Shown: positions 1 through 37,806 of the stretch, in pieces
Position numbering within the stretch: position 1 is the stretch's first letter
Layout of the letters: each line of letters begins with the position of its first letter
Source: Candidatus Anderseniibacteriota bacterium
Lineage (GTDB): Bacteria; Patescibacteriota; JAUYIX01
DNA: 64,000 bases
Reading direction: 5' to 3'
NCBI GenBank assembly: GCA_046350855.1
Contig: JAXLZM010000001.1
Location: 14,104 to 78,103, forward strand
The notes under the pieces: generated by a model
What the model was told of the DNA's origin: nothing
Databases searched by the model: none
Seen by the model: only the letters and a program-made list of their open reading frames with translations
Translations under genes and position numbers: made by a program

Positions 1-205
1 GGCGGTCAAGTCTGGTTTTGTGCCGAGGCTCAGGTGATCCATGACTATGGTTCGAGTGGCTCGCGTGAGCGTGCACAACGGTATACGACCGAGGGTTTGC
101 TCTACTTTGCTAAAAAGTACGGCCAAGCCGTTAAACCGCTCGCCACGATTCAGTCCATTAAGGACACCTTACGAGCCTAAGACCGGCTCGTCAGTACGGA
201 TCATC

Positions 206-1486: not shown

Positions 1487-2646
1487 TGGCCGGCTTACAC
1501 GTTGCTATCGCAGGTCATCGCGGAATCCCCGGTAATTACGGTGGTTTTGAGACTTTTGCTCAGGAGCTCGCTACACGTTTAGTAGAGCAAGGTCATCGAG
1601 TGGATGTGTACTGTCGTACCAACAATGGTACGTACCGCAAACCAAGCTATCGAGGTGTGCGGCTCTTTTACCTCTCGACTATTTCTAACAAATATCTCGA
1701 CACCCTCTACCATTCGCTCAAGTCCGTTTTGCATGCCGCCTTTGTTGGTCGCCCCGATATTTTGCTCCTGGTAAATGTGGGTAATGCTCCAGTCAGTTGG
1801 ATCCCGCGTCTGTTTGGGATCCCCGTGATCCTCAATGTAGACGGTCTGGAGTGGGAACGTCGTAAGTGGAACTGGTTGGCGCGTGTCTACCTGCGTTTTT
1901 GCGCTGCGCTTACCCGAGTAGCACCGACGGCGGTGGTAACGGATGCTAAGGTCATCCAGGATTTTTATAAAGAGCGTCTCGGTCTCGAGACAACCATGAT
2001 TCCGTACGGGGCCGAGGTAACGCGTCGACCTAATGCTGTGGCACTCCGTAAGTACGGTCTCAAGCCCAATCAGTACTATCTGTATGTGGCTCGTTTTGAA
2101 CCGGAGAACAACCCACATTTAGTGGTCGAGGCGTACGAGCAAGTCAAAACTGATAAGCCTCTAGTAATGGTAGGTGATGCTCCCTATGCGCCCGCTTACG
2201 TCAAAAAAGTCCGTGCTACGACCGACCCCCGCATCAAGTTTTTAGGATTTGTCTATGGTCGTGACTACAAAGTCTTGCAGCAAAATGCCTACGCCTATAT
2301 CCAGGCAACCGAGGTGGGTGGAACCCATCCAGCCTTGATCGAAGCCATGGGCTACGGCAACTGTGTCTTAGTCAATGCCACCCCCGAGAACATGGAGACG
2401 GCCAATGGTTCTGCCGTACCATTTTGGTTTTATCGGGGTGGCCGCGCGGCCGAGGGACTGACCCGCAAATTGCGCTTTATTGAGGACAACCCTACGGTGG
2501 CGCAGGAGTTCCGCCGTAAAGCCCGCGTACATATCCGCAAGACCTACCGCTGGGATGTGGTCACACAACAGTATCTAGCTCTGGTTCAACAAGTTCTTGA
2601 ACCACGTCGTAAGGCGACCCTAGCACTCGAATCGCCCAGCACTTAG
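1486..2646 (+). CDS. Glycosyltransferase with a DUF1972-like N-terminus (GIPGNYGGFETF) and a GT1/GT4 C-terminal domain.
   Basis: The MAGLHVAIAGHRGIPGNYGGFETFAQELATRL signature is characteristic of DUF1972 rhamnosyl- or glycosyltransferases. Its ATG overlaps the TAA of the previous gene (TAATG). Confidence 0.7.
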   Translation: MAGLHVAIAGHRGIPGNYGGFETFAQELATRLVEQGHRVDVYCRTNNGTYRKPSYRGVRLFYLSTISNKYLDTLYHSLKSVLHAAFVGRPDILLLVNVGNAPVSWIPRLFGIPVILNVDGLEWERRKWNWLARVYLRFCAALTRVAPTAVVTDAKVIQDFYKERLGLETTMIPYGAEVTRRPNAVALRKYGLKPNQYYLYVARFEPENNPHLVVEAYEQVKTDKPLVMVGDAPYAPAYVKKVRATTDPRIKFLGFVYGRDYKVLQQNAYAYIQATEVGGTHPALIEAMGYGNCVLVNATPENMETANGSAVPFWFYRGGRAAEGLTRKLRFIEDNPTVAQEFRRKARVHIRKTYRWDVVTQQYLALVQQVLEPRRKATLALESPST

Positions 2647-5600
2647 TAAAGTTGCTTGAGAGCGGTTCCGGTGTAGAAATACTTGAGTACTGTGTCAGCC
2701 GATTGCCCAGCCGCGGTGCGAGTTTGGGCGGCTGAGGCGTCTAGACCCACGCCGTGCCCCAGGAGCGGCTTGCCTTGGTTCTCGGGGATCGAGACGCTGA
2801 CGAGCCAGGGTTTAACCGGTCCACCAAAGACCTCGTTAAAACCTCGCGTGTGTCCGTCCGACTGGGAAAAATACGGTGTCACGACCACTTTGTCCTGATA
2901 GGTGACTACCGTACCCCGGGTGGCATTGACCGCCGCGACCACTTTGTCGTTGCGTTTTTCGAGGTTGTAGCCTTTGTACTGCTGGTCGTTTTTGTTATCA
3001 AGATCAAAGCCCTGGGCGGGATGCTTACCGCCAATCGAGCGTTGATACTCGGCATAGGTGCGCGCGGCGATAGCGAGCACTCGTAGATACGTGGCATTGA
3101 GATCATTAGAGGCCTCGGCCAAACCGCGCATATAGAGTTCGAGCGGGAGTTCGTTAATGCCATAGACCTTACCGTCCGTGGCATGACGCACCTCTAGGAC
3201 TCCTCTAAAGGCATTGTCGTTGAGCTGTGGATTCCAGGTGGGGTGATCTTGATAGTCCGCAAACTCTAAAATAGTTTGGCCGTTTGGTACAAACCTAACT
3301 GGCGTTGTGCTTTGACCGGTGAGCGCGCCGGTCAACACGTAGCGCGAGCCGTCCCAGGTCACATCCACGCGACCCGAGCTTACCGAACCCAGTTTGTCCT
3401 TATTGGTATTGGTCACCTGGTAGCTCGACTGCGCCGAGACCCCCACTTTTTTACTGGTCGAGTAGATGCCTATACGCACGTCCGGTCCATTGGAGCCGCC
3501 ACTCGTCTGGGGTGGGGTGCCGGTCGTAGTGCGAACAATCTGGAACGAGCTCCCTGTGATCGCGGCGCCAGTCGGATCTAGTAGGGTAAACCACTCGCTT
3601 GTCTCACTATTTTTGCTGTCAGCCGCAACCTCCATGGAGAGTCGCACTCGTTGATCCGGCCCTACGAGGGGCGGCTCCAGTAAGGTTGGGGTGTACTCAT
3701 TGGTCCAGGAGCCACTCTTAAAGCCACTGGCGTGTTTGATGGATTTGTCCGTCACGACTTGGACTTTGCTTGGTCCGCCGCTCGACCAACTGCGCGCGCC
3801 GAGGTTGGTGAGTTCTACCGAGAGACGTTTGGTTTGGCCAAGCGGGATGCTCACCTTGTTATCGACGGTCTGCAGGCGCGCGGCATAGGCCGGTCGTACC
3901 GCCACTCGGACCGTAACGGTTGAACCATCGATACTCGTTCCACCACTGACCAAGTGATATGTCTCGCTGTACTCTCCCGCATTGGCGGGGGCCTGGATCG
4001 GAAAACTCAAAACGGTCGAACTGCCGCTGACTACGTCTTGGCTCAGTTGCATCGGACGCGTAGTTGAGACCCAACTCCCAGCATGTAAGATCGAGTTGGC
4101 TTGTCCAGCGAGCTCCAGCGCCACCAGGCCTGTACCGCTTGCGCGCCAGGTTTGGGTCGAGTAGTTGGTTAGGCTCAGTTTGACCTGAGCGGTCTCGCCC
4201 GGTGAGACGTAGACCAAGGCCGGACGCTCTTGCAATTCTGCCTGATACGGATTGGAAGCCACCAAATGCAGGGTGAACTCGCTGCCCGCAATAAAGCCAA
4301 CCCCGTCCACGACCGCTTGCATGGGTTCAAAATATTCGGCGGGTTTAGCCGGAATCTGCAGGCTAAAGGTAAAAACACCCTCTTTGTCGGGCGCTACGGC
4401 GCTCGAGTCGAGGAGGGTGGGACGATAGGAGAGTGGCCAGCTGGCATCCCGTAAGACAGAGGTTCGCCCGGTCGGCTGGGTCAAGTTGAGCGCGGCGGGT
4501 GTGGCGCCACTAGCAGACCAAGCTGTAGCCCCGGTGTTGCGGATACGTACCGTAATCTGGGCGGTCTTGCCGCCTTCGACCGCGATGGGATCGACCAGGC
4601 CAATTACTTTGCCCTGGTAGGCTTCGCGGACCGAGCGAGTCAGTGTAAAGGCGGTTCCTGGTATCACGGCCGAACCGCGCCGGGCTACTACAAAGGTATC
4701 TTTGGTGTCTCCGAGGCCCGCGGCCGCGAGTGGAACGATAAAGCTACCGGTTTGTCCCGGTCCGACCGAACTCTCTTTGAGCGTGGTGGGTTCGCTGGCG
4801 GAGTTCCAACCAGTGGTGGCCAAGGTACTCGCGTGGTTAGCGGGACTAGTGGTTCGTAGTACCACTGGAGTAGTCCCACTGTTGGTCCAAGCACTTTGGC
4901 CGGTATTTTTGATCCGCACCGTGGCTTTACCCGCGGTATTTTTAGGTAAAATCGCGCCCGTTACCTCGATAAGACTGCCGCCGTTGCCGCTTGAATAGTA
5001 CGAAGCCCGCGCGGTTAGAGCTTCACTACGGATCCCAGATAGTTGTCCATACTGTGCCGTACCTGGACAGAGCGTTTGGCCAAAATCACGATGCCCGGCC
5101 AAGGTCGGTCCATTTTTATTGACAAAAAAGTGCGTAGCAGTGGGGTCTAAATCATATTTGGCTGAGATAAAGGCAGCGAGTTGTACCAAGGCCTGACGCG
5201 TTTGGCTCGAGATAGGGTTGTTCTCGTAAGTACCAAGCAAAGCGATCCCGATCGAGCCGGTGTTGTAACCGAGTGCATGCGCACCGATCACGCCCCACCC
5301 ACCGGTTCGGCCCTCATAGATCCGGCCTTGGGGGTCAATAATAAAGTTGTAGCCGATGTCACCCCAGCCGAGCGTTTGGGCATGATACTGGTAGATGCCC
5401 CGGATAGTCGCGGCTGGATCGGAGCCACCGTTACCCCCGGCTGTGTGGTGCACCACAATCTGTTGCACCGAAGCGTACTGCGGAGCCCACTCCATCAGTG
5501 ACTCATCGGCGCCCCACTGAGCTCGGCTAATAATAGCCGGTTGATTAGTCGTGGCCGATTGTGCGTTGAGCTGACCCTCTTGGCCGTTGAGATCCGGTGG

Positions 5601-6179
5601 CGGAGCATCCGGTCCGGGGTCGGGGTTCATAAAGTCAAAGCGGATGTCCTCCAAACGTGGAGTACGATCGATGCGGTCGGTTTTGAGATCAGCCGAGAAC
5701 TGTAAACGATTGCCAGGCGGCACAAAGAGCAAATCACTGACCCGGGCGGTAGGATCATCGGCAACAAAGGCATCCTCAGAGAGATGCACTGGTTGCCAAG
5801 CCTGCCAGGAAGTATCTGTGCCGTTGCCGGTCCGGACTGCGAGAGTAAGAGACGTTTGCGCTGGCAGAGCAGCGTGCCACCGTACACCCACGGCAGTAAA
5901 AATCGTCTTAGTGGTGTAGATCTCTGACTCCACGTGACGTGCATCGGCATAGCCACCTTGGCTTTGCGTCAAGGTCAGTCCCGGATTTGAGCTCAAGGTT
6001 TCGACGTTTTGCGCTACCTGAGACTGCGTTGCAAAACTTTGCCCAAGGGAACTGACCAGTTGTTCGACCCCTAACCAACGACGCAACTGGGGAGCGGCCG
6101 AGACCACAGCAAATCCCACCAAGGCTACCGTCAAAAAGACTAAGCCCCAGCGACGTAATCGCCCTGGTGTTGACATGAT
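2643..6179 (-). CDS. Secreted multidomain peptidoglycan hydrolase with an N-acetylmuramoyl-L-alanine amidase domain (amidase_2/PGRP), four repeated Ig-like domains and a C-terminal SpoIID/LytB domain.
   Basis: The N-terminal signal/TM is MSTPGRLRRWGLVFLTVALVGFAVVSA, with the start codon chosen at the internal Met. The amidase_2 motifs are IVVHHTAGGNG and GWGDIGYNFIIDPQGRIYEGR. There are four repeats carrying a T(V/L)RI(K/R)NTG..W..SG motif. The C-terminus, GINELPLELYMRGLAEASNDLNATYLRVLAIAARTYA...TPYFSQSDGHTRG, is SpoIID-like. Confidence 0.8.
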   Translation of the reverse strand: MMSTPGRLRRWGLVFLTVALVGFAVVSAAPQLRRWLGVEQLVSSLGQSFATQSQVAQNVETLSSNPGLTLTQSQGGYADARHVESEIYTTKTIFTAVGVRWHAALPAQTSLTLAVRTGNGTDTSWQAWQPVHLSEDAFVADDPTARVSDLLFVPPGNRLQFSADLKTDRIDRTPRLEDIRFDFMNPDPGPDAPPPDLNGQEGQLNAQSATTNQPAIISRAQWGADESLMEWAPQYASVQQIVVHHTAGGNGGSDPAATIRGIYQYHAQTLGWGDIGYNFIIDPQGRIYEGRTGGWGVIGAHALGYNTGSIGIALLGTYENNPISSQTRQALVQLAAFISAKYDLDPTATHFFVNKNGPTLAGHRDFGQTLCPGTAQYGQLSGIRSEALTARASYYSSGNGGSLIEVTGAILPKNTAGKATVRIKNTGQSAWTNSGTTPVVLRTTSPANHASTLATTGWNSASEPTTLKESSVGPGQTGSFIVPLAAAGLGDTKDTFVVARRGSAVIPGTAFTLTRSVREAYQGKVIGLVDPIAVEGGKTAQITVRIRNTGATAWSASGATPAALNLTQPTGRTSVLRDASWPLSYRPTLLDSSAVAPDKEGVFTFSLQIPAKPAEYFEPMQAVVDGVGFIAGSEFTLHLVASNPYQAELQERPALVYVSPGETAQVKLSLTNYSTQTWRASGTGLVALELAGQANSILHAGSWVSTTRPMQLSQDVVSGSSTVLSFPIQAPANAGEYSETYHLVSGGTSIDGSTVTVRVAVRPAYAARLQTVDNKVSIPLGQTKRLSVELTNLGARSWSSGGPSKVQVVTDKSIKHASGFKSGSWTNEYTPTLLEPPLVGPDQRVRLSMEVAADSKNSETSEWFTLLDPTGAAITGSSFQIVRTTTGTPPQTSGGSNGPDVRIGIYSTSKKVGVSAQSSYQVTNTNKDKLGSVSSGRVDVTWDGSRYVLTGALTGQSTTPVRFVPNGQTILEFADYQDHPTWNPQLNDNAFRGVLEVRHATDGKVYGINELPLELYMRGLAEASNDLNATYLRVLAIAARTYAEYQRSIGGKHPAQGFDLDNKNDQQYKGYNLEKRNDKVVAAVNATRGTVVTYQDKVVVTPYFSQSDGHTRGFNEVFGGPVKPWLVSVSIPENQGKPLLGHGVGLDASAAQTRTAAGQSADTVLKYFYTGTALKQLY

Positions 6180-6276
6180 CAAATGCATCGCGAGAGGGAA
6201 GGTGATTGCGACATCTAGCCCTGATTTTGTCAATAATCGAGGCAAACGGCAAGAGAGGCGTGGTACGATAGCGGCA

Positions 6277-9060
6277 ATGCGTAAAAGCGGCCTCAGTTTG
6301 CTCGTAAGTCTCCTTGTTGTACTCATTTTGGGTACGCCTTCTACTCGTCTTTTGGCGGCTCCCGCGTCTGCATCCTCCCTTAGTCTCGCCGCGTTGGCCG
6401 AGCGGGGAGCAATTTTGCCAGATCGGGTAGTGGTTCAACTGGATGAACACACCACCACACCCGCTTTGATCGCCGCGAGTATTGGTAAACAGAGCACAGC
6501 TCTGGTGCGGGCGACGGCCGCGGACCAACCGGTGGCAAGTTTTTTTTCGTTACCGGTTGCGGCCGATCAACGCGACGCGCTCTTGGCGCAACTGCGTGAG
6601 ACCCCAGGCGTGCGCTATGCCGGACCGGAGTATGTCTATCATGCCACCTCAGAACCGCTCTTTACCTCAGAGTGGTCCATGCACAATACCGGGCAAGTGA
6701 TTGGGGGTGTCACGGGTACGGTTGACGCCGATCTCGACGGACCAGAGGCCTGGGCCAACAGCACCGGTAGTGCCAGTGTAGTCGTGGCGGTGGTTGACTC
6801 AGGGGTTGATCTTACGCATGTGGATCTTAGTGCCAACATTTGGACCAATTCTGGACAAGCGTGCGGAGTAGGGGACGGAGATGGCAACACTTTAATTGGT
6901 GATTGCAAAGGCTACGACTTTGTCTCGAGCTTTAGTGGTTCTGGTTCTAACGGACCGCGGGATGATGACCCCAGTCCTTGCAGTACAGACATTTTGGTGC
7001 CTGACACGGGTGACTGTAATGGCGTGGATGATAATGGGGATGGTTCGGCCGACAACTTTGCGGTGCATGGCACACATGTAGCGGGGATCATCGCCGCGCC
7101 TCAAAACTCATTGGGTATCTCCGGGGTAGCACCGAATGTCAAAATTATGCCGGTGCGCGCTTTGACCGAGGATGGTACGGGCATTACCACGGATGTGTTG
7201 GCCGCCATGAACTACGCCATTGATGAGGGTGCCGACGTAATCAACATGAGCTTTGGCTCGGATGTGTTTGACAGCTCTTTTGATAGTGTCGTGTTGGCCG
7301 CCGATGCAGCTAACGTGGTCTTGGTTGCTGCCGCAGGTAACGCTAACGAGAACATCATGACGGGGACGGATTGTGACTCGCCGGTCTGTAACGACGACCC
7401 TAATAGTACCGGACTTAACGGTGTCATCAGTATTGCTGCTACCAATAATAAAGATCGTAAATCGGGTTTTTCTAACTACTCGACGCAGGGGTACGTCGAC
7501 CTTGCGGCCCCTGGACAATCCATTATTTCTACTTGCTACCAAAACAGCGGCACACCGAGCTGTCCGACGGACTTAGGTGGCGGTGGGCGGTACGCCACGA
7601 TCAGTGGAACCAGTCAGGCGACGCCACACGTCAGTGGAGTAGCGGCGCTGATTCGCTCGATTTCGCCGAGTATTTCGGCGCAGGATCTCGCGACCGTTTT
7701 ATTTGCTACCTCCGACAACATCACCTCGGCTAATGTCGGTTTGGGCGGTTGCGGTGGCTCTGATTGCACGACGGGTTCGGGCGGACAGATCGGGCGAGGG
7801 CGGGTCAACGCTGCTAACATCTTTGACCCATCGATCATCTCGCTCTCACCGGGACGGGCCACTCGCGGTACACTCGGATTGAGCGTTACTTTGACCGGAC
7901 TTAATACAGGTTTTTCGGGGAGCTCCAACGCTTCTTTTGGGACCGGAATAAACGTCACGAGTACCTCGTGCAGCAGTGCGACCCGTTGTACGGCCGTTAT
8001 CGATGTTACTGACTCAGCCACCCTAGGAGACCACAGCGTTACTATTAAAACCGGTTCACAAACGGTCAGTAGTCTAGCAGCCTTTGTTGTAGATGATTCT
8101 ATCTTACGAATCGCCGGACCCAACCGGATTGGTACTGCTATCGAAATTAGCAAAAACGGTTTTCCAGCCAACGGCTCAGCTGATGCGGTCTTGATCGCAC
8201 GCAGTGATACCTTTCCGGATAGCTTGGCGGGTGGACCACTGGCGAGTTTAGCTACTGCTCCAATTCTCTTTACGCCCTCTGACTCACTGGACAGCTTTAC
8301 TCAAGCTGAGATCGAGCGTGTGTTGGATCCTGGCAGTGATAGCACCCCGGATATTTACGTGCTCGGACAAACGGCAGCGCTGAGCTCGGCCGTGGAGGCC
8401 CAACTCGGCACGCTTAACGCTAACTGGCAAGTTAAGCGTCTCGGTGGCATTAATCGAGTCGATACAGCCGTGGCCATCGCCGATGAGGGTAATGCCTTAC
8501 GTGGTGGAGCACCTTCGCAAGTGGTTGTGGCGACTCAAGGGACTTTTGCGGATGCACTCAGTGCTGGTGTCCCAGCCGGTGACCCAGTGATTGATGGATC
8601 CCGCATGCCCATTTTATTGACCGATCGAACCAACTTGTCCGCTGGTACCGCCGCCTACCTCAGCGCCTACCGGAATACGATCGGTGCCATCTTTGTGGTT
8701 GGCGGAACCGCTGCGGTGAGCGACGCAGTGGTAACACAGATGTCGCAGTACGTAGGAAATATTCAGCGATTAGATGGTGCCGATCGCTACGAGACCGCTC
8801 AAGCCGTGGCGGAGTACTTTTATCCTACTCCCGTCTCGATCTCATTTGCCTCAGGCTTAAACTTTCCGGATGCAATGGCAGGCAATTGGCACTCAAGCTC
8901 ACAGGGGTCACCCCTCCTGTTAGTACGCGGCAGCGAGACGCCCCAAGCCACCATTGACTACGTCCAAGCGCACGCAGGCACGGTCCTCGGCGGCTTTTTG
9001 TATGGTGGAACAGCTGTAATTCCCGACGATGTCAAAACACTTTTGGAAGGTATCATGTAG
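6277..9060 (+). CDS. Secreted subtilisin-like serine protease (peptidase S8) with three C-terminal CWB2-type cell-wall-binding repeats.
   Basis: The signal peptide is MRKSGLSLLVSLLVVLILG. The S8 catalytic triad motifs are VVAVVDSGVD, HGTHVAGIIAA and GTSQATPHVSGVAAL. There are three repeats of roughly 100 aa with RIAGPNRIGTAIEIS, RLGGINRVDTAVAIA and RLDGADRYETAQAVAEY signatures of the CW_binding_2 type seen in LytC and Cwp proteins. Confidence 0.85.
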   Translation: MRKSGLSLLVSLLVVLILGTPSTRLLAAPASASSLSLAALAERGAILPDRVVVQLDEHTTTPALIAASIGKQSTALVRATAADQPVASFFSLPVAADQRDALLAQLRETPGVRYAGPEYVYHATSEPLFTSEWSMHNTGQVIGGVTGTVDADLDGPEAWANSTGSASVVVAVVDSGVDLTHVDLSANIWTNSGQACGVGDGDGNTLIGDCKGYDFVSSFSGSGSNGPRDDDPSPCSTDILVPDTGDCNGVDDNGDGSADNFAVHGTHVAGIIAAPQNSLGISGVAPNVKIMPVRALTEDGTGITTDVLAAMNYAIDEGADVINMSFGSDVFDSSFDSVVLAADAANVVLVAAAGNANENIMTGTDCDSPVCNDDPNSTGLNGVISIAATNNKDRKSGFSNYSTQGYVDLAAPGQSIISTCYQNSGTPSCPTDLGGGGRYATISGTSQATPHVSGVAALIRSISPSISAQDLATVLFATSDNITSANVGLGGCGGSDCTTGSGGQIGRGRVNAANIFDPSIISLSPGRATRGTLGLSVTLTGLNTGFSGSSNASFGTGINVTSTSCSSATRCTAVIDVTDSATLGDHSVTIKTGSQTVSSLAAFVVDDSILRIAGPNRIGTAIEISKNGFPANGSADAVLIARSDTFPDSLAGGPLASLATAPILFTPSDSLDSFTQAEIERVLDPGSDSTPDIYVLGQTAALSSAVEAQLGTLNANWQVKRLGGINRVDTAVAIADEGNALRGGAPSQVVVATQGTFADALSAGVPAGDPVIDGSRMPILLTDRTNLSAGTAAYLSAYRNTIGAIFVVGGTAAVSDAVVTQMSQYVGNIQRLDGADRYETAQAVAEYFYPTPVSISFASGLNFPDAMAGNWHSSSQGSPLLLVRGSETPQATIDYVQAHAGTVLGGFLYGGTAVIPDDVKTLLEGIM

Positions 9061-10075: not shown

Positions 10076-10173
10076 TCGTCGCGCGCTAGCTTGCCAGACC
10101 TGAGTGAACATTGTAGAGTTTTGCCGCTCTAAAGGCGGATTTTCTTGATTACTAATGGCTCTACAAAGCCATA

Positions 10174-13825: not shown

Positions 13826-15060
13826 GTCGCTCACTGCGCTCAATGTTATTGGTAGCGTACTACTATCCGCCGCGCGGTGGAGGTGGTGTGCAACGCACGG
13901 TTAAATTTGCTAAGTATTTGCCAGCCTTTGGGGTTCGGCCGGTGGTATTAACCGTGGGTGCCGCGCCACGTTCACTCGTGGACCACTCTTTTAGTGTGGC
14001 CAAAGATGTTGTCCGGGTACCGTACCGCGAACCTGGTCGCTTTTTGGGACGATTGTTTGAGTACACTCGACTTGAGCGCATTGCGGGGTGGATCAGACCC
14101 GCCATTCGACAAGCTCTTGCGACCGTGCATGAGCAGGGGATCGAGCTGCTCTACTCAACCGCCTCGCCGTACAGTAATCATATTGTGGCTTTGCAGGTCG
14201 CGCGTGAGTTGGGCCTGCCCTGGATCGCCGATTTTAGGGATCTCTGGACGGGCAATGCCCTGTACCGCGCTCGTACACCCTGGATTGCAAAACACCATCG
14301 GACTTTAGAGGCAACGGTCTATCGCGAAGCCACCAAGATTGTAGTCACGAGCCCTTCGCAAAAAAAGTATGTCATAGAGGATTTTGGCGTGGCTCCTGAC
14401 AAAATTGTGGTGATTACTAACGGATTTGACTCGCAGGACTTTGCCCAATCCCGTGCCTTGGCAGAACCCACCAACACTACGGCTGCCGCGAGCACCAGTA
14501 GCACACTTGAAATTGGTTACATCGGCTCTTTTTATGGCGACTACCGCCCGGATGATTTTTTACTGGCTCTGCGTTTTTTGCTGCAGCGCCGACCCGAAGT
14601 TTTGCGCGGGGTGCGTTTTAGATTTATTGGGGATTACGATCGGACCAGTCGTGAGGTCCTCGGCCATCCAGAACTCGCGCACGTTATTTCGGTCGAGTCA
14701 TACCTACCGCATGACCAATTACAACGTATGCGCGCCGGGCTTGCGGCAAACCTGCTCTACCTACCAGACCAGGGCGAACGGATTAGGGCTATGATTCCGC
14801 AAAAAGTGTTTGAGTACCTGGCCACCGGTAAGCCGCTTTTTGCGGTGCTGCCCGCCAGTGATGTGGGCGATATTTTATTGCAACACAAAGCCGCGACCCT
14901 GGCCCCTGCCGGCGATCCACTCGGGATTGCCCACACCTTGCAGACTTTTCTTGAGCAGCTGCGGGCCGGCAAGGCAGCACGACCGCAGGGAGATTTTAGC
15001 GCCTTTGAACGTAAAAACCTGACCGCCAAGCTGGCGCGGGTCATTGAGGAGATCGCATGA
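13822..15060 (+). CDS. Glycosyltransferase family 4.
   Basis: The N-terminus LLVAYYYPPRGGGGVQRTVKFAKYL is GT4-like. It is translationally coupled to its neighbours. Confidence 0.7.
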   Translation: MSRSLRSMLLVAYYYPPRGGGGVQRTVKFAKYLPAFGVRPVVLTVGAAPRSLVDHSFSVAKDVVRVPYREPGRFLGRLFEYTRLERIAGWIRPAIRQALATVHEQGIELLYSTASPYSNHIVALQVARELGLPWIADFRDLWTGNALYRARTPWIAKHHRTLEATVYREATKIVVTSPSQKKYVIEDFGVAPDKIVVITNGFDSQDFAQSRALAEPTNTTAAASTSSTLEIGYIGSFYGDYRPDDFLLALRFLLQRRPEVLRGVRFRFIGDYDRTSREVLGHPELAHVISVESYLPHDQLQRMRAGLAANLLYLPDQGERIRAMIPQKVFEYLATGKPLFAVLPASDVGDILLQHKAATLAPAGDPLGIAHTLQTFLEQLRAGKAARPQGDFSAFERKNLTAKLARVIEEIA

Positions 15061-16196
15061 TTGTACGTGGCAAAACGATCGTACTGATCGCGACGGTTGC
15101 ATGGCAGCGTAACTGGCAGCGCCAGCAAGAGTGGGCTAAGCGCCTGGCCGAGCATAACCGGGTTTTATACGTAGCGCCCTACGGTATGACCAGTATGGGT
15201 CCACTGACCGTGCTTAAAAAATTTGCCCGGGAGCGCGGCTTTACCTACCAACATCATCTCTCAACTCAGGCCCAAAAAAATCTAGAGCACGTGCGGCTCA
15301 AATTTATCCCGATCCGCAACAAAGTCTGGCTTAATTGGGTTAACGTCCGCTGGATGCAGCACCAGCTCAAAAAGCTGGGAGTCTTGGATGGACCTGAGAC
15401 GCTTTTTTGGGTCTGTAATCCGGCCGACACAAGTGTTGCCTTGGTTACCCGGTACCCCAAGTCACGTGTTCTCTACGATATTGCTATGCGGTTCAGCCTG
15501 CTGCCCGACGCACCCCCCTGGATTATGGAGTCACAGGCTAGACTGGCCGAGCGCGCCAACGTGATCATCTATGACGCCACGGCTTCGCTGGAGGACTTGC
15601 CAAGCAATAGCCACTATAAAGCGACGTACATACCGCAAGGTTGTGCGGAGGAACGTCTCACGCAAACCGTAAAGGAGCACCCGGCGGTCGCCCAGATCCC
15701 ACACCCACGTGCGGTGTACATTGGACTAGACACGGTCTTGGACGTGCCGCTCCTCAAAAAATTGTTGGCCGAAGTCCCAGCCCTGCAGCTTGTCATGATT
15801 GGCGATGTGTCGCCTCATCCAATTGAGGATCCTCGCGTACACTGGATCGGCCCGGTAAACTACCACCAAAAAGATCGCTACCTGGCCGGGGCGGACGTAG
15901 CCCTTATCCCATATTTGGTTAACCGCTACACGGCTGGAACGTTCCCGACTAAGTTTTTTGAGTATCGCGCCTTGGGCTTGCCGGTCGTGAGCACCGCCTT
16001 ACCCGAACTCAGGCAATTTACCGGGCAGGTGCAACTCGCCAAGACGCCTCTCCAGTTTGTAGAGCAGGTCCGGACTCTGCTGAACAAATCCGCTAAGAGC
16101 AACGGCATAGTACAGACGGTACCGCACGACTTTTTGGCAGAACACACCTGGTCCAAGCGTTTTGAAAAAGTGCAAGAAGTGCTGGGGCCACTCTAA
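15057..16196 (+). CDS. Glycosyltransferase with a GT1-like C-terminal domain.
   Basis: The C-terminal ADVALIPYLVNRYTAGTFPTKFFEYRALGLPVVSTALPEL resembles the Glycos_transf_1 core. The N-terminal domain is divergent. Confidence 0.55.
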   Translation: MIVRGKTIVLIATVAWQRNWQRQQEWAKRLAEHNRVLYVAPYGMTSMGPLTVLKKFARERGFTYQHHLSTQAQKNLEHVRLKFIPIRNKVWLNWVNVRWMQHQLKKLGVLDGPETLFWVCNPADTSVALVTRYPKSRVLYDIAMRFSLLPDAPPWIMESQARLAERANVIIYDATASLEDLPSNSHYKATYIPQGCAEERLTQTVKEHPAVAQIPHPRAVYIGLDTVLDVPLLKKLLAEVPALQLVMIGDVSPHPIEDPRVHWIGPVNYHQKDRYLAGADVALIPYLVNRYTAGTFPTKFFEYRALGLPVVSTALPELRQFTGQVQLAKTPLQFVEQVRTLLNKSAKSNGIVQTVPHDFLAEHTWSKRFEKVQEVLGPL

Positions 16197-16200
16197 TTGT

Positions 16201-18831
16201 ATGCGCGCCAAAACTGCCATCCTCCAATTTAGCGCTCTACTGTTCCTGACCGCGGCCGTAGAGTTTAGTGGTCTACCTTGGGCTCCTTGGTTTGCGCTCC
16301 TGGCTACACTCCTTTTAGCACTGCACTGGACGCGCCAGGGTAAACAACGTTGGATTTTGTATGGCGTCTTGATCTTGACGCTTTTTCCGGAGTTTCAATC
16401 GGGGACACTCGGGGGTCTTGAACTCCATCACATTTTAGCGCTCGTCCTGGCAGTGGTGGTCTTGGTGCCGTGGTTAGTGGTTCGGCCACGACCGCTCCCA
16501 CGCCTCTCGCGTCTACTCATTCTGTACTATGGAGTGGCTCTGGCGGTAACACTCCTGCAGGCCGGTTCACTCGCCAGTACGCATCGCTTGTTGACCGTTA
16601 GTCTCTTTGTCCTCATCGCGTTGCTGGTGCCGTTTGTGGTTACAAAACGTCAGGAGTTGCTCGAACTTTTTTGGGTGCTCACCGCTGCCACTCTTGTCTC
16701 ACTCGTGGTTGGTTTGGCCGCCTACTACTACGCTAGTCTCACGCATACACTCTTTACCAACCCGTACATTCATATCAGCACGGTCGAGGGAGTACCACGT
16801 CTAGCCGCAACCGTACTAGACTCTAACTTTTTGGGGCATCAACTCTTACTAATCGTCCCAGGGTTACTACTGATTACGCACAAATTGCAGGCCCATCTAC
16901 CACGTCTCAAACGTACCGCGCTCTTTTTAGTGACGACCTTTTGTCTTGCCGCCCTCTGGTTAACCTACTCGCGCTCGACCTACCTAGGATTGGCTGTGGC
17001 AGTGGTCGTTCTGCTCTTGGCGGTTCGTCAAAAAATTTGGCGCACCCTGCTCTCCGTCACGATCGCAAGTCTGGCGCTGGCGACGATTTTGATTTCGGCC
17101 TTTCCGTTTTATTCGATCTACCGGGTGCCGTCGAGGGTGTTGCCGACCGAGACTAAAGAGCGGTTGCTTTTAGGTTTTAATCCGCGGGCCTTGGTCGATG
17201 AGTACATTGCACAAATCCAATCGGACCCCACGTTGAGTGAGGAGGAGCGCGAGCAACTCTTGGCACGAGATGTCTCGTCCGAGTCGCTCGGCTACCGCAT
17301 TGAGTTTTGGAAGGCTGGAATACGTATGTTTAAAGACCATCCGGTTTTGGGGGTCGGGGTCGGGCAGTTTCGCTACCGCTTTACGGAGTACTCGGACTTG
17401 AGCTTTATTCAGCAGCCCGACATGCACAATATTTTTATCGAGCAGCTGGCCGAGACGGGTCTCTTGGGTGAACTCGCTCTGCTGCTTGTACTTGGATACG
17501 CCTGTCTCGTTTTGACCCAGACCATCCGGCACGGCACACAAGCAACCAAGCAAGAGGCCAGTGTGCTCTTGGCAGTACTCCTGGCCTTACTTACACAATC
17601 GTTGCTACTCGGTGGTCTCGGCGCTCTACCTATGTACTTGGCCTTGGGAGTGAGTGCCCGCTACGCCTCCTCAGCTCTTTATAAAACTAAAAAACCCCAA
17701 GCGGCGCGACGACGAGTGGTCTTTATCACCGCTACAACCAAAAAAGATGGGCCGGGTAATGTCCTCTTTACCCAAATTAAGGGGCTAGATCGCACACGTT
17801 TTGAGCCGATCGTACTCACCATCTTGCGGGGTGGACCCTGGGATCCCGAATATAGAAAAATGGGTGTACGGCGCATCAATTTGCGTCTACGCAAACCGTT
17901 GGATTTGGCCGCACCGTTTATTTTGTGGATACTGCTACGGCGCTTAAGACCCGCCTTGGTGCAAACCCAAATGATTCGCGGGGACGTTTATGGTCGTTGG
18001 GCCGCCCTTCGTGCAGACGTACCGTTTATTTCGGTCGTGCACAACATGGATATCTGGAAGCAAACTAAGCGGCGCTTTCATCGGTTTGCGACCTGGTTTG
18101 ACGCGCAGGGGCTACTCCAAGCACGCGCCGTCGTAGCCGTCTCGGATGCGGTCAAAAAACACTTACACACTCGACAGGGGATCAACCTCGATATGATTAC
18201 GGTCATCCGTAACGCGGTTGACTTTAAGCGCTTTGCAAAAAAACCAAGTGCGGGGCAACTGGCTCACTTGCGTTTAGAGCTTGGGATTCCTCCTGGTGCT
18301 CCGGTGGTCTTTACCGTAGCGCGAGTTCACCCACAAAAAGCACCTGAGATTTGGTTGCAGGCCGCACTGCAGGTCTTGCGCACCCAGCCTCAGGTCTACT
18401 TTGTATGGGCCGACCGCGGTCCGCTGCTTAACGAGATGCGCAGGGCGGTTCCTCCTCAGTACCGCAAGCAGATCAAGTTTATTGGGTTCCGCACCGACAT
18501 TGCTGAGTTGCTGTATTTGGGTGACCTCTTTGTCTTACCCTCGCGCTTTGAGGGGTTACCTATGGTACTGCTCGAGGCCATGGCCGCCGGTCGGGCCTGC
18601 ATCGCAACTAACGTCTCGGGCAATCCTGAACTCATCGCCCACAACGAGCGGGGTGTGCTGGTTGCTCCAAATCAACCCCTGCAACTCGCGACGGCACTAC
18701 GGGAACTTCTAACAGATCAGCCACGCAGAGAGCGTTTGGGCAGGGCGGCGCAGCGGTTCATCCAGCAAAACTTTACCAGTGAACGGTTATCACGGGAATA
18801 TCAGGACTTGTTTGTTGCACTACTAAGCTAG
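16201..18831 (+). CDS. Fusion protein with an N-terminal polytopic Wzy/O-antigen-ligase-like polymerase domain and a C-terminal GT4 glycosyltransferase domain.
   Basis: The N-terminal 500 aa are highly hydrophobic and carry the Wzy_C/O-antigen-ligase signature GYRIEFWKAGIRMFKDHPVLGVGVGQFRY. The C-terminal region from about aa 520 (VVFITATTKKDGPG...EAMAAGRACIATNVSGNPELI) is GT4. Confidence 0.7.
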   Translation: MRAKTAILQFSALLFLTAAVEFSGLPWAPWFALLATLLLALHWTRQGKQRWILYGVLILTLFPEFQSGTLGGLELHHILALVLAVVVLVPWLVVRPRPLPRLSRLLILYYGVALAVTLLQAGSLASTHRLLTVSLFVLIALLVPFVVTKRQELLELFWVLTAATLVSLVVGLAAYYYASLTHTLFTNPYIHISTVEGVPRLAATVLDSNFLGHQLLLIVPGLLLITHKLQAHLPRLKRTALFLVTTFCLAALWLTYSRSTYLGLAVAVVVLLLAVRQKIWRTLLSVTIASLALATILISAFPFYSIYRVPSRVLPTETKERLLLGFNPRALVDEYIAQIQSDPTLSEEEREQLLARDVSSESLGYRIEFWKAGIRMFKDHPVLGVGVGQFRYRFTEYSDLSFIQQPDMHNIFIEQLAETGLLGELALLLVLGYACLVLTQTIRHGTQATKQEASVLLAVLLALLTQSLLLGGLGALPMYLALGVSARYASSALYKTKKPQAARRRVVFITATTKKDGPGNVLFTQIKGLDRTRFEPIVLTILRGGPWDPEYRKMGVRRINLRLRKPLDLAAPFILWILLRRLRPALVQTQMIRGDVYGRWAALRADVPFISVVHNMDIWKQTKRRFHRFATWFDAQGLLQARAVVAVSDAVKKHLHTRQGINLDMITVIRNAVDFKRFAKKPSAGQLAHLRLELGIPPGAPVVFTVARVHPQKAPEIWLQAALQVLRTQPQVYFVWADRGPLLNEMRRAVPPQYRKQIKFIGFRTDIAELLYLGDLFVLPSRFEGLPMVLLEAMAAGRACIATNVSGNPELIAHNERGVLVAPNQPLQLATALRELLTDQPRRERLGRAAQRFIQQNFTSERLSREYQDLFVALLS

Positions 18832-18833
18832 CC

Positions 18834-19676
18834 ATGCGTATCTCGACCGTCATCGTCAACTATAAAACGCCGGAGTTGCTACGGGAGTGTTTGCGTTCGC
18901 TCGCTCAACACGCGCCCCAAGCTCGGGACATTATCGTGGTCGACAATGCCTCCAAGGACGAGACCATCGCTTTGCTAGCGCGGGAGTTTCCGCAGGTGCG
19001 ACGCATCGCCTCACGTACCAATGCCGGGTTTGCCAAGGCGGTCAACTGGGGAATTACCAACGCGCGGGAGCCCTACATTTTAATCCTCAATCCGGACGTG
19101 ATCGTCTCGGCTGGTTCGGTTCAACGTCTCTACCAAGAGTTGGAGACCGCGCCGGACATCGCTTTGATTGCGCCCAAGTTGCAGTACCCGGACGGATCGC
19201 TCCAGTACTCCTGTTGTCGCTTTCAAACCCCGACTTACATTGTGGCGCACCGCAGCTGGCTTGGTTCAACCAGTTTTGGACAGCGCCTGATCAACCACGT
19301 CCGCATGGTCGATTATGATCATAAAACTCCGCGGGACGTGGACTGGGTGATTGGGGGCTGTATGTTGGTACGACGCAGCGCCATCGAGGAGGTGGGGTTA
19401 ATGGATGAACGCTACTGGCTCTACATCGAAGACATGGATTGGTGTCGGGCCTTTTGGCAAGCCGGCTGGCGGGTTCGCTATGACCCACGCGCGGTGATGA
19501 CCCACCACTACCGTCGCCAATCGGCCAAAGCCCACGGGGTGCGCGGTTTGCTAACTCCACTCGGTCGAGCCCACTTTATCTCGGGAGCCAAGTATTTTGT
19601 TAAGCACATCGGCAACCGTCGTCGTCTAACCGAGGCCCGCAAAACTGGCCAGGACAGCGCGCTGGCGACTCATTGA
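18834..19676 (+). CDS. Glycosyltransferase family 2.
   Basis: ISTVIVNYKTPELLRECLRSL...VVDNASKDETIAL and the DxD region match the GT2 N-terminal signature. Confidence 0.8.
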   Translation: MRISTVIVNYKTPELLRECLRSLAQHAPQARDIIVVDNASKDETIALLAREFPQVRRIASRTNAGFAKAVNWGITNAREPYILILNPDVIVSAGSVQRLYQELETAPDIALIAPKLQYPDGSLQYSCCRFQTPTYIVAHRSWLGSTSFGQRLINHVRMVDYDHKTPRDVDWVIGGCMLVRRSAIEEVGLMDERYWLYIEDMDWCRAFWQAGWRVRYDPRAVMTHHYRRQSAKAHGVRGLLTPLGRAHFISGAKYFVKHIGNRRRLTEARKTGQDSALATH

Positions 19677-19711
19677 CAAGCGTCCAAAGTTTTGGCATAC
19701 TGGCGCGCTTT

Positions 19712-21076
19712 ATGAAGCGTCTCTGGCTCATCATCACGATACTTTCCTTGCTGTGTATCCTCGGTTTGGGGGCACTCTTTTTTTGGATCGCGCAAATGGA
19801 GCCAGGTGGCTCTGCAACGAGTGACGATGCAACTGGTCGTCTGACCCAACTCAAGTCTGAGCTCACGCGGGGCTACCATACCGCGGCAGTACTGCGTCAG
19901 TTTAAAGATGCGGACCCTGAGTCGGTTCTGCTCGTTATCCAAAATGAGTGGGAACTCCGCCCGACCGGTGGCTTTATGACCGCTTTTGGTGAGGGCGAGA
20001 TCGTTAATGGCGGACTTACCAACCTCAGGATCGTCCCGAGCGAGTACTTTGACCCGCAAATCTCACTCAAAGCTCCCATGCCGGCCGGCATGGCCTATCG
20101 CATCACGACCCCAACCCTGGCTATGCGCGACAGTAACTGGGACGTTGACTTTGCCACGACCGCTGCGACTCTCGGCCGCTACTATCAGGACGCCACGGGC
20201 AAAACCCCTGACCTAGTCATCGCTATTACGACCGAGGCCGCCGAGCACGTCTTAGCGCATACTGGGCCGCTCGATTTTACCGTAAACGGCCACACCTTGA
20301 GCGTCACCAGCCAAACCGTTACCGAGACCCTCGAGAACTATACCGACCAATCCTTTAGGGAGCTCGGGCTCGAGTGGGAGACTCGCAAGCAAATCTTGAG
20401 TGCGTTTGGAGAGGCGCTCTTGCCGCGACTGCATGCTTTTGTCAAAGAGCACCCGGTCGATACCTTGCGGCTTGCCAATGAGTTACTCGCCTCGTATGAC
20501 GTGCAGCTTTGGTCAGCGCAACCTTCACTAGCGCAGCATCTTGCGTCTTTGGGTGCTGCCCAAACCGTGGCAGCCACGGGCACAACCGACGGTCTGCTGA
20601 TCGTCGACGCCAACGTGGGTGCCCGTAAAACTAATCGCGTCCTGCAGCAACGCGCTGACTATCGGGTCGATCTTGGTGCCGCCCAGCCAACCGCAACCCT
20701 GCACATCACTTACACCCATACGGGTACACTCGAGCCGACGATTATTGAGTACTATGACACCGTCCGGATATATGTACCCCAGGGCAGCACGCTGCTTACC
20801 CAAGAAAATCTCGACCACGTGCAGACGTATATTCGGCATGGACGAACCGTTTTTGAAGGGCGCCTACGTGTACCAGTTGGCAGCAGCAAAACCATTACGC
20901 TCTCCTACGTTTTACCAAACAGGGTAGCCACGACAGAATTTGCTCAGTATCGCTTACTGCTGGAGCGCCAACCCGGTTCTGCCAACTATCCGGTACAAGT
21001 GACGGTCTTTGATGGCGCCCAAAAAGCGACGATCGATACGGACGTGGCTCACGATCGCACCATCGCGGTCCAGTAA
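19712..21076 (+). CDS. DUF4012-like membrane-anchored protein.
   Basis: It has an N-terminal TM (MKRLWLIITILSLLCILGLGALFFW). The motif LVIQNEWELRPTGGFMTAFGEGEI resembles the DUF4012 N(N)AELRPTGGF signature. It is the last gene of the coupled polysaccharide operon. Confidence 0.55.
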   Translation: MKRLWLIITILSLLCILGLGALFFWIAQMEPGGSATSDDATGRLTQLKSELTRGYHTAAVLRQFKDADPESVLLVIQNEWELRPTGGFMTAFGEGEIVNGGLTNLRIVPSEYFDPQISLKAPMPAGMAYRITTPTLAMRDSNWDVDFATTAATLGRYYQDATGKTPDLVIAITTEAAEHVLAHTGPLDFTVNGHTLSVTSQTVTETLENYTDQSFRELGLEWETRKQILSAFGEALLPRLHAFVKEHPVDTLRLANELLASYDVQLWSAQPSLAQHLASLGAAQTVAATGTTDGLLIVDANVGARKTNRVLQQRADYRVDLGAAQPTATLHITYTHTGTLEPTIIEYYDTVRIYVPQGSTLLTQENLDHVQTYIRHGRTVFEGRLRVPVGSSKTITLSYVLPNRVATTEFAQYRLLLERQPGSANYPVQVTVFDGAQKATIDTDVAHDRTIAVQ

Positions 21077-22890: not shown

Positions 22891-23220
22891 TTATTTCTTT
22901 TTGGCCGGAGCTTTTGCTTTGGAAGCTGCCTTTGCGGCTGAACCACCCGGTGCTACCTCAACGCGTGTGCGTGGGTGCAAGTTGCCGTCAAATCCCATGT
23001 GTCGAATATGTCGAAAGGCCACTTTGCCCTCGATCGAAGCATGCAACGTATGGTCCTTACCCATAAAAACGTTTTTGCCGGCGATGTAGTGGGTGCCACG
23101 TTGGCGGACCAGGATGTCTCCGGTGCTGACTTGTTCACCCCCAAAAGCCTTAACACCCAGGCGTTGGGCCTGACTATCTCGGACGTTTGATGTACTACCA
23201 GCTGCTTTTTTATGCGCCAT
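22891..23220 (-). CDS. rpmA: 50S ribosomal protein L27 with a C-terminal Lys/Ala-rich extension of about 25 aa.
   Basis: [31 protein letters not shown]...[10 protein letters not shown] is the L27 family signature. The C-terminal tail [18 protein letters not shown] is unusual. Confidence 0.9.
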
Positions 23221-25234: not shown

Positions 25235-27567
<2,333 letters not shown>

Positions 27568-27594
27568 TAGTTACGTTGCGTTAGGAGCAATGAG

Positions 27595-29109: not shown

Positions 29110-29146
29110 GGGGGCTTTGTATATGAGGCTAAAGTAGATGTGTAAA

Positions 29147-30168: not shown

Positions 30169-30191
30169 TTCGGTTGAGCCTGTTGGATGAA

Positions 30192-30404: not shown

Positions 30405-30446
30405 ATGTTTGTACTTAAAATTAATTGGGTTAGCGTATTGAGCGCG

Positions 30447-37780: not shown

Positions 37781-37806
37781 ATTACGGCACAAGCGTGAAC
37801 AACTTG

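Follow-up and report, generated by a model that had tools for sequence, protein, structure and literature searches.

The closest described counterpart of the locus reported here is the Clostridioides difficile surface-layer (S-layer)/anionic-polymer (AP) locus, also known by its product polysaccharide II (PSII), in which genes for proteins with triplets of the cell-wall-binding repeat CWB2 lie beside a flippase/polymerase/glycosyltransferase (GT) cluster (Willing 2015, PMC4973711; Chu 2016, PMC5065235). C. difficile is the only system in which CWB2 binding has been studied experimentally; its CWB2 triplets bind PSII and not bare peptidoglycan (PMC4973711), and the probable PSII biosynthesis locus adjoins the cwp/slpA cluster (PMC4973711, PMC5065235). 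Furthermore, the distribution of a polymerase homologue follows that of CWB2 systems in the Peptostreptococcaceae (preprint, bioRxiv 10.1101/2025.04.02.646754). The surface-layer homology (SLH) systems of Bacillus anthracis and Paenibacillus alvei, with pyruvylated secondary cell-wall polymer (SCWP) and CsaB/TagA, offer a further comparison: there too a three-repeat module docks non-covalently on a dedicated glycopolymer, and the anchor domain is often accompanied by the genes of its polymer. Here we describe a CWB2 locus in a 64,000-nucleotide stretch of contig JAXLZM010000001.1 (assembly GCA_046350855.1, Candidatus Anderseniibacteriota bacterium), referred to below as the window, from the Candidate Phyla Radiation (CPR)/Patescibacteria. 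To our knowledge, the envelope of these organisms is known mainly from images, and the attachment of their surface proteins is essentially unknown; our literature search found no paper connecting CWB2 with CPR/Patescibacteria.

The gene cluster is a conserved cell-envelope locus of a small-genome Parcubacteria (Andersenbacteria) lineage. In it, the genes of three exported wall-active proteins, two of which carry CWB2 triplets, are flanked by two different Wzx/Wzy-type glycan modules, in the order module A, amidase-SpoIID hydrolase (divergent), S8-CWB2 protease, CWB2-only protein, module B, S41 protease and ribosomal protein L9. This arrangement of CWB2 proteins beside wall-glycopolymer genes, like the component families, is known; the host lineage is new. 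We give about an even chance to the reading, made by analogy, that the CWB2 ligand is the product of module B or module A. The features of the locus, with domains called by Pfam at gathering thresholds and open reading frames abbreviated as ORFs, are as follows.

1..180, + strand: 3' end of a GT2 gene, cut by the window start (frame-1 stop at 178-180)
206..1486 (ORF opens at 41), + strand: GT4, 426 aa, 100% identical to MFO0704360.1 (Glycos_transf_1 111.9 bits, Glyco_transf_4 78.1 bits)
1486..2646, + strand: DUF1972-type GT4, WchF/Cps2T-like (DUF1972 59.3 bits)
2643..6188 (ORF to 6326), - strand: predicted membrane-anchored Amidase_2-Ig-SpoIID peptidoglycan hydrolase, 1181 aa from the annotated start (Pfam)
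6277..9060, + strand: secreted S8 subtilase with a C-terminal CWB2 triplet (Pfam); the ORF opens at 6175, with alternative starts at 6202 and 6277, of which 6277 is likely
9029..10075, + strand: secreted CWB2-only protein, 348 aa, with three CWB2 repeats behind a signal peptide (Pfam)
10174..11352, + strand: GT4, first gene of module B (Glycos_transf_1 112.3 bits, Glyco_trans_4_2 51.5 bits)
11349..12650 (ORF opens at 11289), + strand: Wzx-type flippase of the multidrug/oligosaccharidyl-lipid/polysaccharide (MOP) superfamily (Polysacc_synt 52.4 bits, Polysacc_synt_3 48.6 bits)
12647..13825, + strand: GT4, with an ATGA overlap (Glycos_transf_1 71.9 bits, Glyco_trans_4_4 57.5 bits)
13822..15060, + strand: GT4-like protein in which Pfam scores the N-terminal domain only (Glyco_trans_4_4 60.6 bits, Glyco_transf_4 55.1 bits)
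15057..16196, + strand: GT-B enzyme with a C-terminal GT1-type domain (Glyco_trans_1_2 42.8 bits, Glyco_trans_1_4 41.1 bits)
16162..18831, + strand: Wzy_C-GT4 fusion, polymerase or ligase (Wzy_C 80.8 bits at 16936-17481, Glycos_transf_1 114.2 bits at 17749-18756)
18834..19676, + strand: GT2 (Glycos_transf_2 79.9 bits)
19712..21076 (ORF opens at TTG 19673), + strand: DUF4012 protein with an N-terminal membrane anchor and an extracytoplasmic domain (DUF4012 72.9 bits)
21123..22340, + strand: membrane-anchored S41/CtpB-like PDZ protease (Peptidase_S41 172.9 bits, PDZ, CtpB_N-like)

The assignment to the lineage follows from identity with deposited proteins. Exact-sequence look-ups with three window proteins gave no entry, but five others are identical to the NCBI entries MFO0704360, -61, -71, -73 and -74, and a sixth entry is identical to the CWB2-only protein; all six lie on a 291,925-bp contig of a metagenome-assembled genome labelled 'Candidatus Andersenbacteria bacterium' by the submitter (Patescibacteria group, Parcubacteria), and the accession numbering agrees with a reading of fifteen genes from the GT4 at 206 to ribosomal protein L9. 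The initial annotation had assumed a Firmicute-like setting, which the Patescibacteria label of the contig replaces. A Chloroflexota/Ktedonobacteria source, considered because of the GC content and a weak Ktedonobacterales match, was likewise dropped in view of the NCBI labels. For comparison we used four other genomes, represented by the loci L161/L164, L162/L166, L167 and L168; the relatives lie on contigs of 0.87-1.22 Mb, which is compatible with small CPR genomes.

The CWB2 triplets are genuine. In the S8 protein, CW_binding_2 (PF04122) scores 160 bits over three stretches (about 8056-9057), downstream of a Peptidase_S8 domain (164.8 bits, about 6775-7737) whose D/H/S triad motifs VDSGVD, HGTHVAG and GTSQATPHVSG are intact in the translation. 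The 348-aa protein scores 176.7 bits, also in three stretches, and Pfam finds no further domain in it. Both values lie clearly above the family cut-off of 24.9 bits, which the initial annotation had set beforehand as its refuting test, and its description of an S8 protease with three CWB2 repeats next to a protein made of three such repeats alone is thereby borne out. A CWB2 profile built from the homologue alignment recovers exactly these two CWB2 proteins in the window. Their genes overlap by 32 nt, and the NCBI entry identical to the shorter product bears the name 'cell wall-binding repeat-containing protein [Candidatus Andersenbacteria bacterium]'. Both proteins start with a hydrophobic N-terminal segment followed by an AQA/ASA-type site, as judged by the hydropathy heuristic for N-terminal hydrophobic segments on which all export calls here are based; by the same heuristic, the amidase, DUF4012 and S41 proteins also carry N-terminal hydrophobic leaders.

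The repeats also show the conserved sequence features of CWB2 modules. The P[ILV][ILV][ILVF]-type motif, mutation of which abolishes CWB2 anchoring in C. difficile (PMC4973711), is found in all six repeats, as PILL, PILL and PVLL in the CWB2-only protein and as PILF, PILL and PLLL in the S8 protein, the first of these last three ending in F and not in I, L or V. Across an alignment of 30 CWB2 homologues, invariant R/G/T, DAL, P..L and GG columns recur three times, and the P and L columns of the motif are invariant or nearly so. Compared with PDB sequences, the CWB2-only protein has E values of about 2e-24 with Cwp8 and Cwp6 and of about 1e-18 with SLP-H. Modelled by AlphaFold2 from the homologue alignment, it reached a predicted local distance difference test score (pLDDT) of 91.2 and a predicted template-modelling (TM) score (pTM) of 0.87, and in Foldseek the model matched 7acy_B (SLP-H) with a TM score of 0.79 and a root-mean-square deviation of 2.6 Å, 5j6q with 0.75 and 5j72 with 0.76. 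The matches to SLP-H, Cwp8 and Cwp6 span TM scores of 0.75-0.80, and Foldseek returned no significant fold match for the model besides these three. The CWB2-only protein is thus predicted to adopt the C. difficile pseudo-trimeric prism. At an identity of at least 50%, its orthologous group is small, with about 16 clusters, and those that bear names are Andersenbacteria, Parcubacteria or simply 'bacterium'; the next-nearest named CWB2 relatives, at about 40% identity, are from Actinomycetes, Bacilli and Coriobacteriia.

Beside the two CWB2 genes lies that of the large hydrolase, which the initial annotation had listed with them upstream of the glycan operon. Its Amidase_2/SpoIID composition is confirmed, and the annotated start gives 1181 aa, but the gene is on the minus strand and diverges from the CWB2 pair. 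From the N-terminus, the protein consists of a membrane anchor (a hydrophobic segment at residues 11-29), Amidase_2 (69.8 bits, 5061-5474), an NBR1-type Ig-like region represented by one Pfam hit (N_BRCA1_IG, 53.1 bits, 3897-4208) and a C-terminal SpoIID domain (49 bits, 2898-3176); among PDB sequences it matches amidases of the peptidoglycan recognition protein (PGRP)/T7-lysozyme type as well as SpoIID. All four relatives have the gene in this place too.

Downstream of the CWB2 genes, module B is a compact glycan operon. The first reading had counted eight or nine glycosyltransferases between 10174 and 21076, a DUF1972-type enzyme among them; we count six transferase genes there, and the DUF1972-GT (1486-2646) and a further GT4 (206-1486) lie beyond the amidase gene and before the start of 2643 claimed for the locus. 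Its finding of Wzx/Wzy-type glycan genes and CWB2 surface proteins in one locus stands, with all domains above Pfam thresholds. Translational coupling, claimed for the operon as a whole, fits most of it: ATGA overlaps occur at four junctions, from the GT4 at 10174 through the GT-B gene at 15057, the Wzy_C-GT4 ORF overlaps the gene before it, and the GT2 begins 2 nt past the stop of the fusion ORF. It does not extend to the last gene, since the probable DUF4012 start, ATG 19712, is 36 nt past the GT2 stop (23-50 nt in the relatives), so that DUF4012 is most likely not translationally coupled. The flippase has about 11 hydrophobic segments, and its start codon, ATG 11349, forms ATGA with the preceding stop. 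Among the transferases, the GT-B enzyme at 15057 has weak similarity to NCBIfam TuaH (44.7 bits, far under the cut-off of that model), and the GT2 at 18834 matches the NCBIfam rhamnosyltransferase model TIGR01556 at a sub-cut-off 55 bits and has a cluster mate named by the Joint Genome Institute (JGI) as a WbbL-type rhamnosyltransferase.

The operon is set off from the CWB2 genes by 98 nt (10076..10173, + strand) that carry signals of their own. A promoter scan of this gap identified a promoter-like element, TTGCCA-17-TAGAGT, at 10091-10119, which is conserved as CTTGCC-N17-TA(G/T)AGT in five of the five aligned genomes; module B is therefore probably a separate transcription unit from the CWB2 genes. 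The terminator scan of the window revealed a small hairpin followed by a T-run at 10124-10146. Additionally, an inverted repeat, ATGGCTCTACAAAGCCAT, is located at 10155-10172, just before the first start codon of module B, and its arms, TGGC...GCC, are kept in the window, L161, L162, L167 and L168 (5/5). It could be an operator or a hairpin in the 5' untranslated region that masks the ribosome-binding site.

The central enzyme of module B is the Wzy_C-GT4 fusion. By hydropathy its Wzy_C domain has about 10 hydrophobic segments and a large external loop (residues 315-432), the best-conserved part of the protein. This loop aligns to that of the WaaL-type structure 7tpg_B, with 'SLGYRIEFW...GVGVGQF' opposite 'SVGVRLKIW...GVGVGQF' (27.7 bits overall) and the segment 'HNIFIEQLAETGLLG' paired with 'HNDIVEAASTTGIPG'; R379, H422, N423 and six of the seven GVGVGQF residues are invariant across 13 homologues. 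Arg and His residues of the R379/H422 type are, we assume, catalytic in WaaL-type ligases. The large external loop, the Arg in 'SLGYRIEFW' and the 'HN...ETG..G' motif are all shared with the WaaL/PglL/WsaB family (7tpg); the fused cytoplasmic GT4 is unlike that family, as is a setting with neither lipid A-core nor a known protein acceptor. Pfam Wzy_C (PF04932) spans polymerases, ligases and O-oligosaccharyltransferases, and the motifs are common to ligases and polymerases, so the sequence of the fusion fits either role. In the window, as in nine homologues, one polypeptide holds both Wzy_C and GT4, which at least four others encode by two adjoining genes; two of these, L167 (17082-19699) and L168 (17117-19743), are among the relatives, which makes the fusion lineage-specific. 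Union in one chain implies a physical partnership between the Wzy_C enzyme and this GT4.

The last gene of module B belongs to a family described before in this context. A survey (Meheust 2019, PMC6744442) noted that CPR and Gram-positive bacteria are enriched in DUF4012 (PF13196), and it credits the first notice of the family to a capsular/exopolysaccharide (CPS/EPS) cluster of Bifidobacterium longum (PMC6744442, citing PMC5412050). A DUF4012 gene closing a surface-polysaccharide operon of a CPR genome, as seen here, is what that survey would lead one to predict, and its presence is expected and not new; it is dispensable for the locus in L168, which lacks it, and is present in L161, L162 and L167. 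Searches of PDB with the DUF4012 sequence and with a three-sequence profile gave noise only and no relative, and a single-sequence AlphaFold2 model was unusable (pLDDT 42). The S41 protease gene that follows is a conserved neighbour, with L161 and L162 having it in the same place, and a possible member of the envelope system.

On the other side of the hydrolase gene, the window begins inside a second glycan cluster. The available source sequence reached 688 bp upstream of the start of the GT4 at 206, about 480 bp past the window edge, and the wider upstream context was drawn from relatives and not from the source genome. In L164/L165 and L166, the series GT2, GT4 and DUF1972-GT forms the end of a second Wzx/Wzy module, our module A, whose parts in the relatives are an opposite-strand Wzx, a CpsC/Wzz-like protein with two transmembrane segments, a secreted protein, methyltransferases, a stand-alone Wzy_C protein, GT2, GT4 and DUF1972-GT. 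The GT2 gene cut by the window edge is present on the Logan contig L163, where it matches Glycos_transf_2 and is 81% identical to the GT2 of L164. The DUF1972-GT is 70-81% identical in relatives; its best NCBIfam match is the beta-1,4-rhamnosyltransferase Cps2T, over the full length at 174 bits, below the 500-bit equivalog cut-off. Enzymes of the WchF/Cps2T class add the second sugar to a lipid-linked primer. The protein with two transmembrane segments (about 250 aa, CpsC-like topology) scores 21.2 and 17 bits with Wzz (PF02706), E values 4e-4 and 8e-3, below the 25.5-bit cut-off. Module B contains no chain-length regulator and has DUF4012 at its end.

Between the CpsC/Wzz-like gene and the methyltransferases of module A lies the gene of the secreted protein, a beta-rich product of about 530 aa (L164 4142-5746, L166 4995-6578) in which no Pfam, NCBIfam or otherwise recognisable domain was found; presumably it is also encoded just upstream of the window. 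That the two modules are recent duplicates of each other was considered and ruled out, the Wzy_C proteins sharing 28% identity over 145 aa and the Wzx proteins 23%. The protein genes thus sit between two distinct Wzx/Wzy modules, the upstream one cut by the window start, where a single self-contained pathway had been proposed.

The locus is collinear in the four relatives, with protein identities to the window of 40-85% (AtpD, for scale, 81%). The core block, comprising the amidase gene, both CWB2 genes and the module B genes from GT4 to GT2, is intact in every relative in which it is in view, and the variation lies at the borders and beside the amidase gene. Copper-handling genes replace the ATP synthase genes in L161, a methyltransferase gene is inserted beside the amidase gene in L166, and an epimerase gene in L167 and L168, joined in the latter by two small ORFs. 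Synteny reaches past the locus, to the S41 protease, L9 and ATP synthase genes, in L162.

The co-location of CWB2 and glycan genes, conserved as it is in four other genomes, is beyond chance. As a weak background we examined 160 loci from genome and metagenome collections, centred on distant GT4 relatives of the first GT4 (37% identity or less) from unrelated phyla; the CWB2 profile found none in these loci, which span many phyla, most of them not expected to carry CWB2. A separate case is provided by L172/L173, in which a CWB2 protein 35% identical to ours belongs to a set of four such proteins encoded beside wall-polymer genes that include two ligases of the LytR-CpsA-Psr (LCP) type. It is a fuller CWB2 and wall-polymer locus than the one in the window. 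This sequence (L172 1-21008; L173, DAIOFF010000028.1, GCA_036745855.1) comes from an unrelated, probably high-GC Gram-positive lineage. Of its CWB2 proteins, one combines Amidase_2 with CWB2, a second (1237 aa) has a low-complexity acidic region, a third measures 782 aa and the fourth, of 335 aa, is CWB2-only; the neighbouring genes encode a UDP-sugar dehydrogenase, an oxidoreductase, an aminotransferase and an acetyltransferase (a pathway like that of a diacetamido-uronic acid), a GT2 and a DUF2304 protein.

Set against the C. difficile locus, the one described here shows several parallels at the protein level. The CWB2-anchored protease corresponds to Cwp84 and the nearby wall amidase to Cwp6, and the nearest structure to the model of the CWB2-only protein is SLP-H, the half of SlpA made of CWB2 repeats alone. 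The differences are as clear. The protease is a serine (S8) enzyme where that of C. difficile is a cysteine protease, the amidase is membrane-anchored and has no CWB2 triplet, the flippase is of the Polysacc_synt type instead of MviN, the protein genes have a glycan module on each side, and the phylum is Patescibacteria. Neither a lattice-forming S-layer subunit nor SecA2 is seen here, nor are a CD2783-like initiator, LcpA/LcpB, manC/pgm2, uppS2 or a glycerophosphotransferase. The Wzy_C proteins are placed here by membership in the generic Wzy_C family, and any homology to CD2777, the polymerase type that co-distributes with CWB2 systems (bioRxiv 10.1101/2025.04.02.646754), is putative.

Capsule (cps) loci of the Streptococcus pneumoniae type are the other close relatives in gene content: they share Wzx, a Wzy_C-type enzyme, several GT-B/GT2 enzymes, a DUF1972/Cps2T(WchF)-like GT and, through module A of the relatives, a CpsC-like protein with two transmembrane segments. 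They differ in having a CpsE/WchA-type initiator, CpsA (LCP), the CpsD kinase and the CpsB phosphatase, all of which are absent here, whereas in our locus the polymerase is fused to a GT4 and DUF4012 ends the operon. The SLH systems, alike in logic, have an unrelated anchor fold, and our locus showed neither a csaB pyruvyl transferase nor tagA.

From adjacency and from the analogy with the C. difficile S-layer/AP locus, a functional link between the CWB2 proteins and the glycan operon is plausible. Under this reading, a WecA/TagO-type enzyme encoded elsewhere would prime undecaprenyl phosphate, and the cytoplasmic GT4, GT-B and GT2 enzymes would assemble the repeat unit, which Wzx would move over the membrane and the Wzy_C enzyme would polymerise or transfer on its outer side. 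An unlinked ligase would then join the polymer to peptidoglycan. The CWB2 prisms would dock non-covalently on one such wall polymer, for which module B is the nearest candidate, and would thereby keep the S8 protease and the small, wall-coating 348-aa protein at the surface, as the membrane-anchored amidase-SpoIID enzyme remodels the wall. Gene content, domains, CWB2 fold, export signals, conserved order and taxonomic label are observed, and it is the nature of the ligand, the way the polymer is attached and the source of the primer that we infer.

A number of observations weigh against the scheme, and most of them concern functions that the locus lacks. A scan of every plausible (non-shadow) ORF of at least 150 aa across the 64-kb window gave no hit to Bac_transf or Glycos_transf_4 (WecA/MraY), in agreement with the earlier statement that no initiating phosphoglycosyltransferase is visible there. 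The suggestion that such an initiator might lie just upstream found no support, none being present in the 10 kb before or after the module A GT4 of L164 and L166. There is no LCP protein (LytR_cpsA_psr, PF03816) in the window or the related loci, no nucleotide-sugar gene in the window or within the 10-kb flanks of the anchor genes in relatives, and no anionic-polymer gene (glycerophosphotransferase, pyruvyl transferase or UDP-sugar dehydrogenase) at the locus; the window also has no SecA-like ORF, and no lattice-forming subunit was seen in it. With no initiating transferase, LCP-type wall ligase, nucleotide-sugar synthesis gene or SecA2 in the window or in those flanks, the self-contained system that had been proposed is not supported, and the route to a wall-attached polymer is incomplete as observed. 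The missing initiator is not fatal. The Cps2T-like DUF1972-GT and the rhamnosyltransferase-like GT2, both scoring under their cut-offs, resemble second-step enzymes, which would use a primer produced elsewhere. Genes of the wecA/tagO type, which supply the primer, are often unlinked. Four further points count on the same side as these absences: either of the two glycan modules flanking the CWB2 genes could be the source of the ligand; a promoter-like element and a small hairpin part module B from those genes; the flanking housekeeping genes are syntenic as well, so that conserved adjacency is only modest evidence of functional coupling; and in L170 a lone CWB2-only gene has no glycan neighbours.

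Alternatively, the two modules might make a capsule, an exopolysaccharide (EPS) or another glycan unrelated to CWB2, with the triplets binding peptidoglycan or a polymer encoded elsewhere and the adjacency being that of an envelope neighbourhood kept by synteny. The generic Wzx/Wzy look of the modules, with their CpsC/Wzz-like protein, Cps2T-like GT and DUF4012, suits this explanation, as do the lack of an LCP ligase, the separate and conserved promoter-like element of the glycan operon, the syntenic housekeeping flanks and the solitary gene of L170. However, the core block stays whole as its borders vary among relatives, the CWB2 triplets tested so far need a secondary wall polymer (PMC4973711), and the independent cluster in L172/L173 again lies beside wall-polymer genes. 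We consider an unrelated glycan possible but rather doubtful. Less probable by far, in our judgement, is O-glycosylation of surface proteins, in which oligosaccharides flipped by Wzx would be moved en bloc to secreted wall proteins by Wzy_C enzymes of the PglL/WsaB type. The breadth of PF04932, which takes in ligases and O-oligosaccharyltransferases, allows for such a role, and the alignment of the Wzy_C loop to 7tpg_B, with GxR and His-Asn...G..G motifs invariant in 13 homologues, agrees with it; so do the want of an LCP ligase and the candidate substrates encoded between the modules. Yet these motifs fail to separate ligases from Wzy_C-type polymerases, the match to the NCBIfam 'O-glycosylation ligase' is a weak one whose 43.8 bits fall far under the 188-bit cut-off of the model, the protein resembling a chain-length regulator in module A of the relatives implies polymerisation, and no glycosylation sequon came to light, nor a Ser/Thr-rich region that could act as acceptor.

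The same proteins might also be directed outward. A symbiotic way of life is widely ascribed to CPR bacteria (background; see PMC8080830), and in an episymbiotic setting CWB2 triplets could recognise the wall polymer of a Gram-positive host and position the protease there, as the amidase-SpoIID enzyme opens the host wall. The nearest named CWB2 relatives outside the clade are, as noted above, from Actinomycetes, Bacilli and Coriobacteriia, and a long Ig-like spacer separates the membrane anchor of the hydrolase from its distal SpoIID domain, both of which would be in keeping with such a role; ordinary autolysin and wall-protein biology fits these features too, however, and glycan operons of the cell itself surround the genes. 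We regard this recognition of a host as most improbable, and we hold it very improbable that the lineage uses a CWB2 docking module of the Firmicute/Actinobacteria type, together with the S8 protease and the long-armed amidase-SpoIID hydrolase, to attach to a host and breach its wall with the glycan modules building the symbiont's own coat.

Several other features of the window were recorded. Two DUF3800-IX RNA motifs (Rfam RF02968) at 52113-52177 and 52881-52943 on the + strand, with 50.5 and 41.2 bits against a gathering threshold of 36.8, bracket a DUF3800 protein gene on the opposite strand (52179-52796, -). A Type ISP restriction-modification enzyme of 1031 aa is encoded at 56371-59466 (-; Type_ISP_C 267.5 bits, N6_Mtase), next to ORFs of 358 aa (59414-60490, -) and 380 aa (55198-56340, +) that have no Pfam match. 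The guanine-plus-cytosine (GC) content of this stretch is 41%, compared with 51-60% over the first 52 kb and 47-48% from 52 kb onward, and the drop suggests a horizontally acquired defence islet. Beside L27/L9, a methyltransferase gene (23210-24435, -) is broken into two ORFs, one of 83 aa (23210-23461) and one of 266 aa (23635-24435); the same protein has 428-434 aa in L161 and L162, and a frameshift, a pseudogene or an error of assembly may account for the break. Genes for the F-type ATP synthase subunits a, b, delta, alpha, gamma and beta occupy 25235-31235 (-), and these are followed by genes for a PrsW-family membrane protease (31564-32820, +), a XerC/D-type tyrosine recombinase (32826-33806, -) and a PcsB-like coiled-coil M23 peptidase (36518-37918, -).

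The findings provide a testable lead on the architecture of the CPR envelope, in which the components are ordinary and the functional link is one that we infer. A Parcubacteria lineage whose relatives lie on contigs of about 1 Mb gives some 30 kb to two glycan pathways around two proteins that bear the docking module employed by C. difficile for its S-layer. If the link fails, the locus is an ordinary surface-polysaccharide neighbourhood; if it holds, the 348-aa CWB2 protein and module B are concrete candidates for study. Non-covalent anchoring to a secondary wall polymer would in that event reach past the classical Gram-positive phyla, and a true CWB2/secondary-polymer system in the CPR would be the first molecular handle on the attachment of their surface layers.

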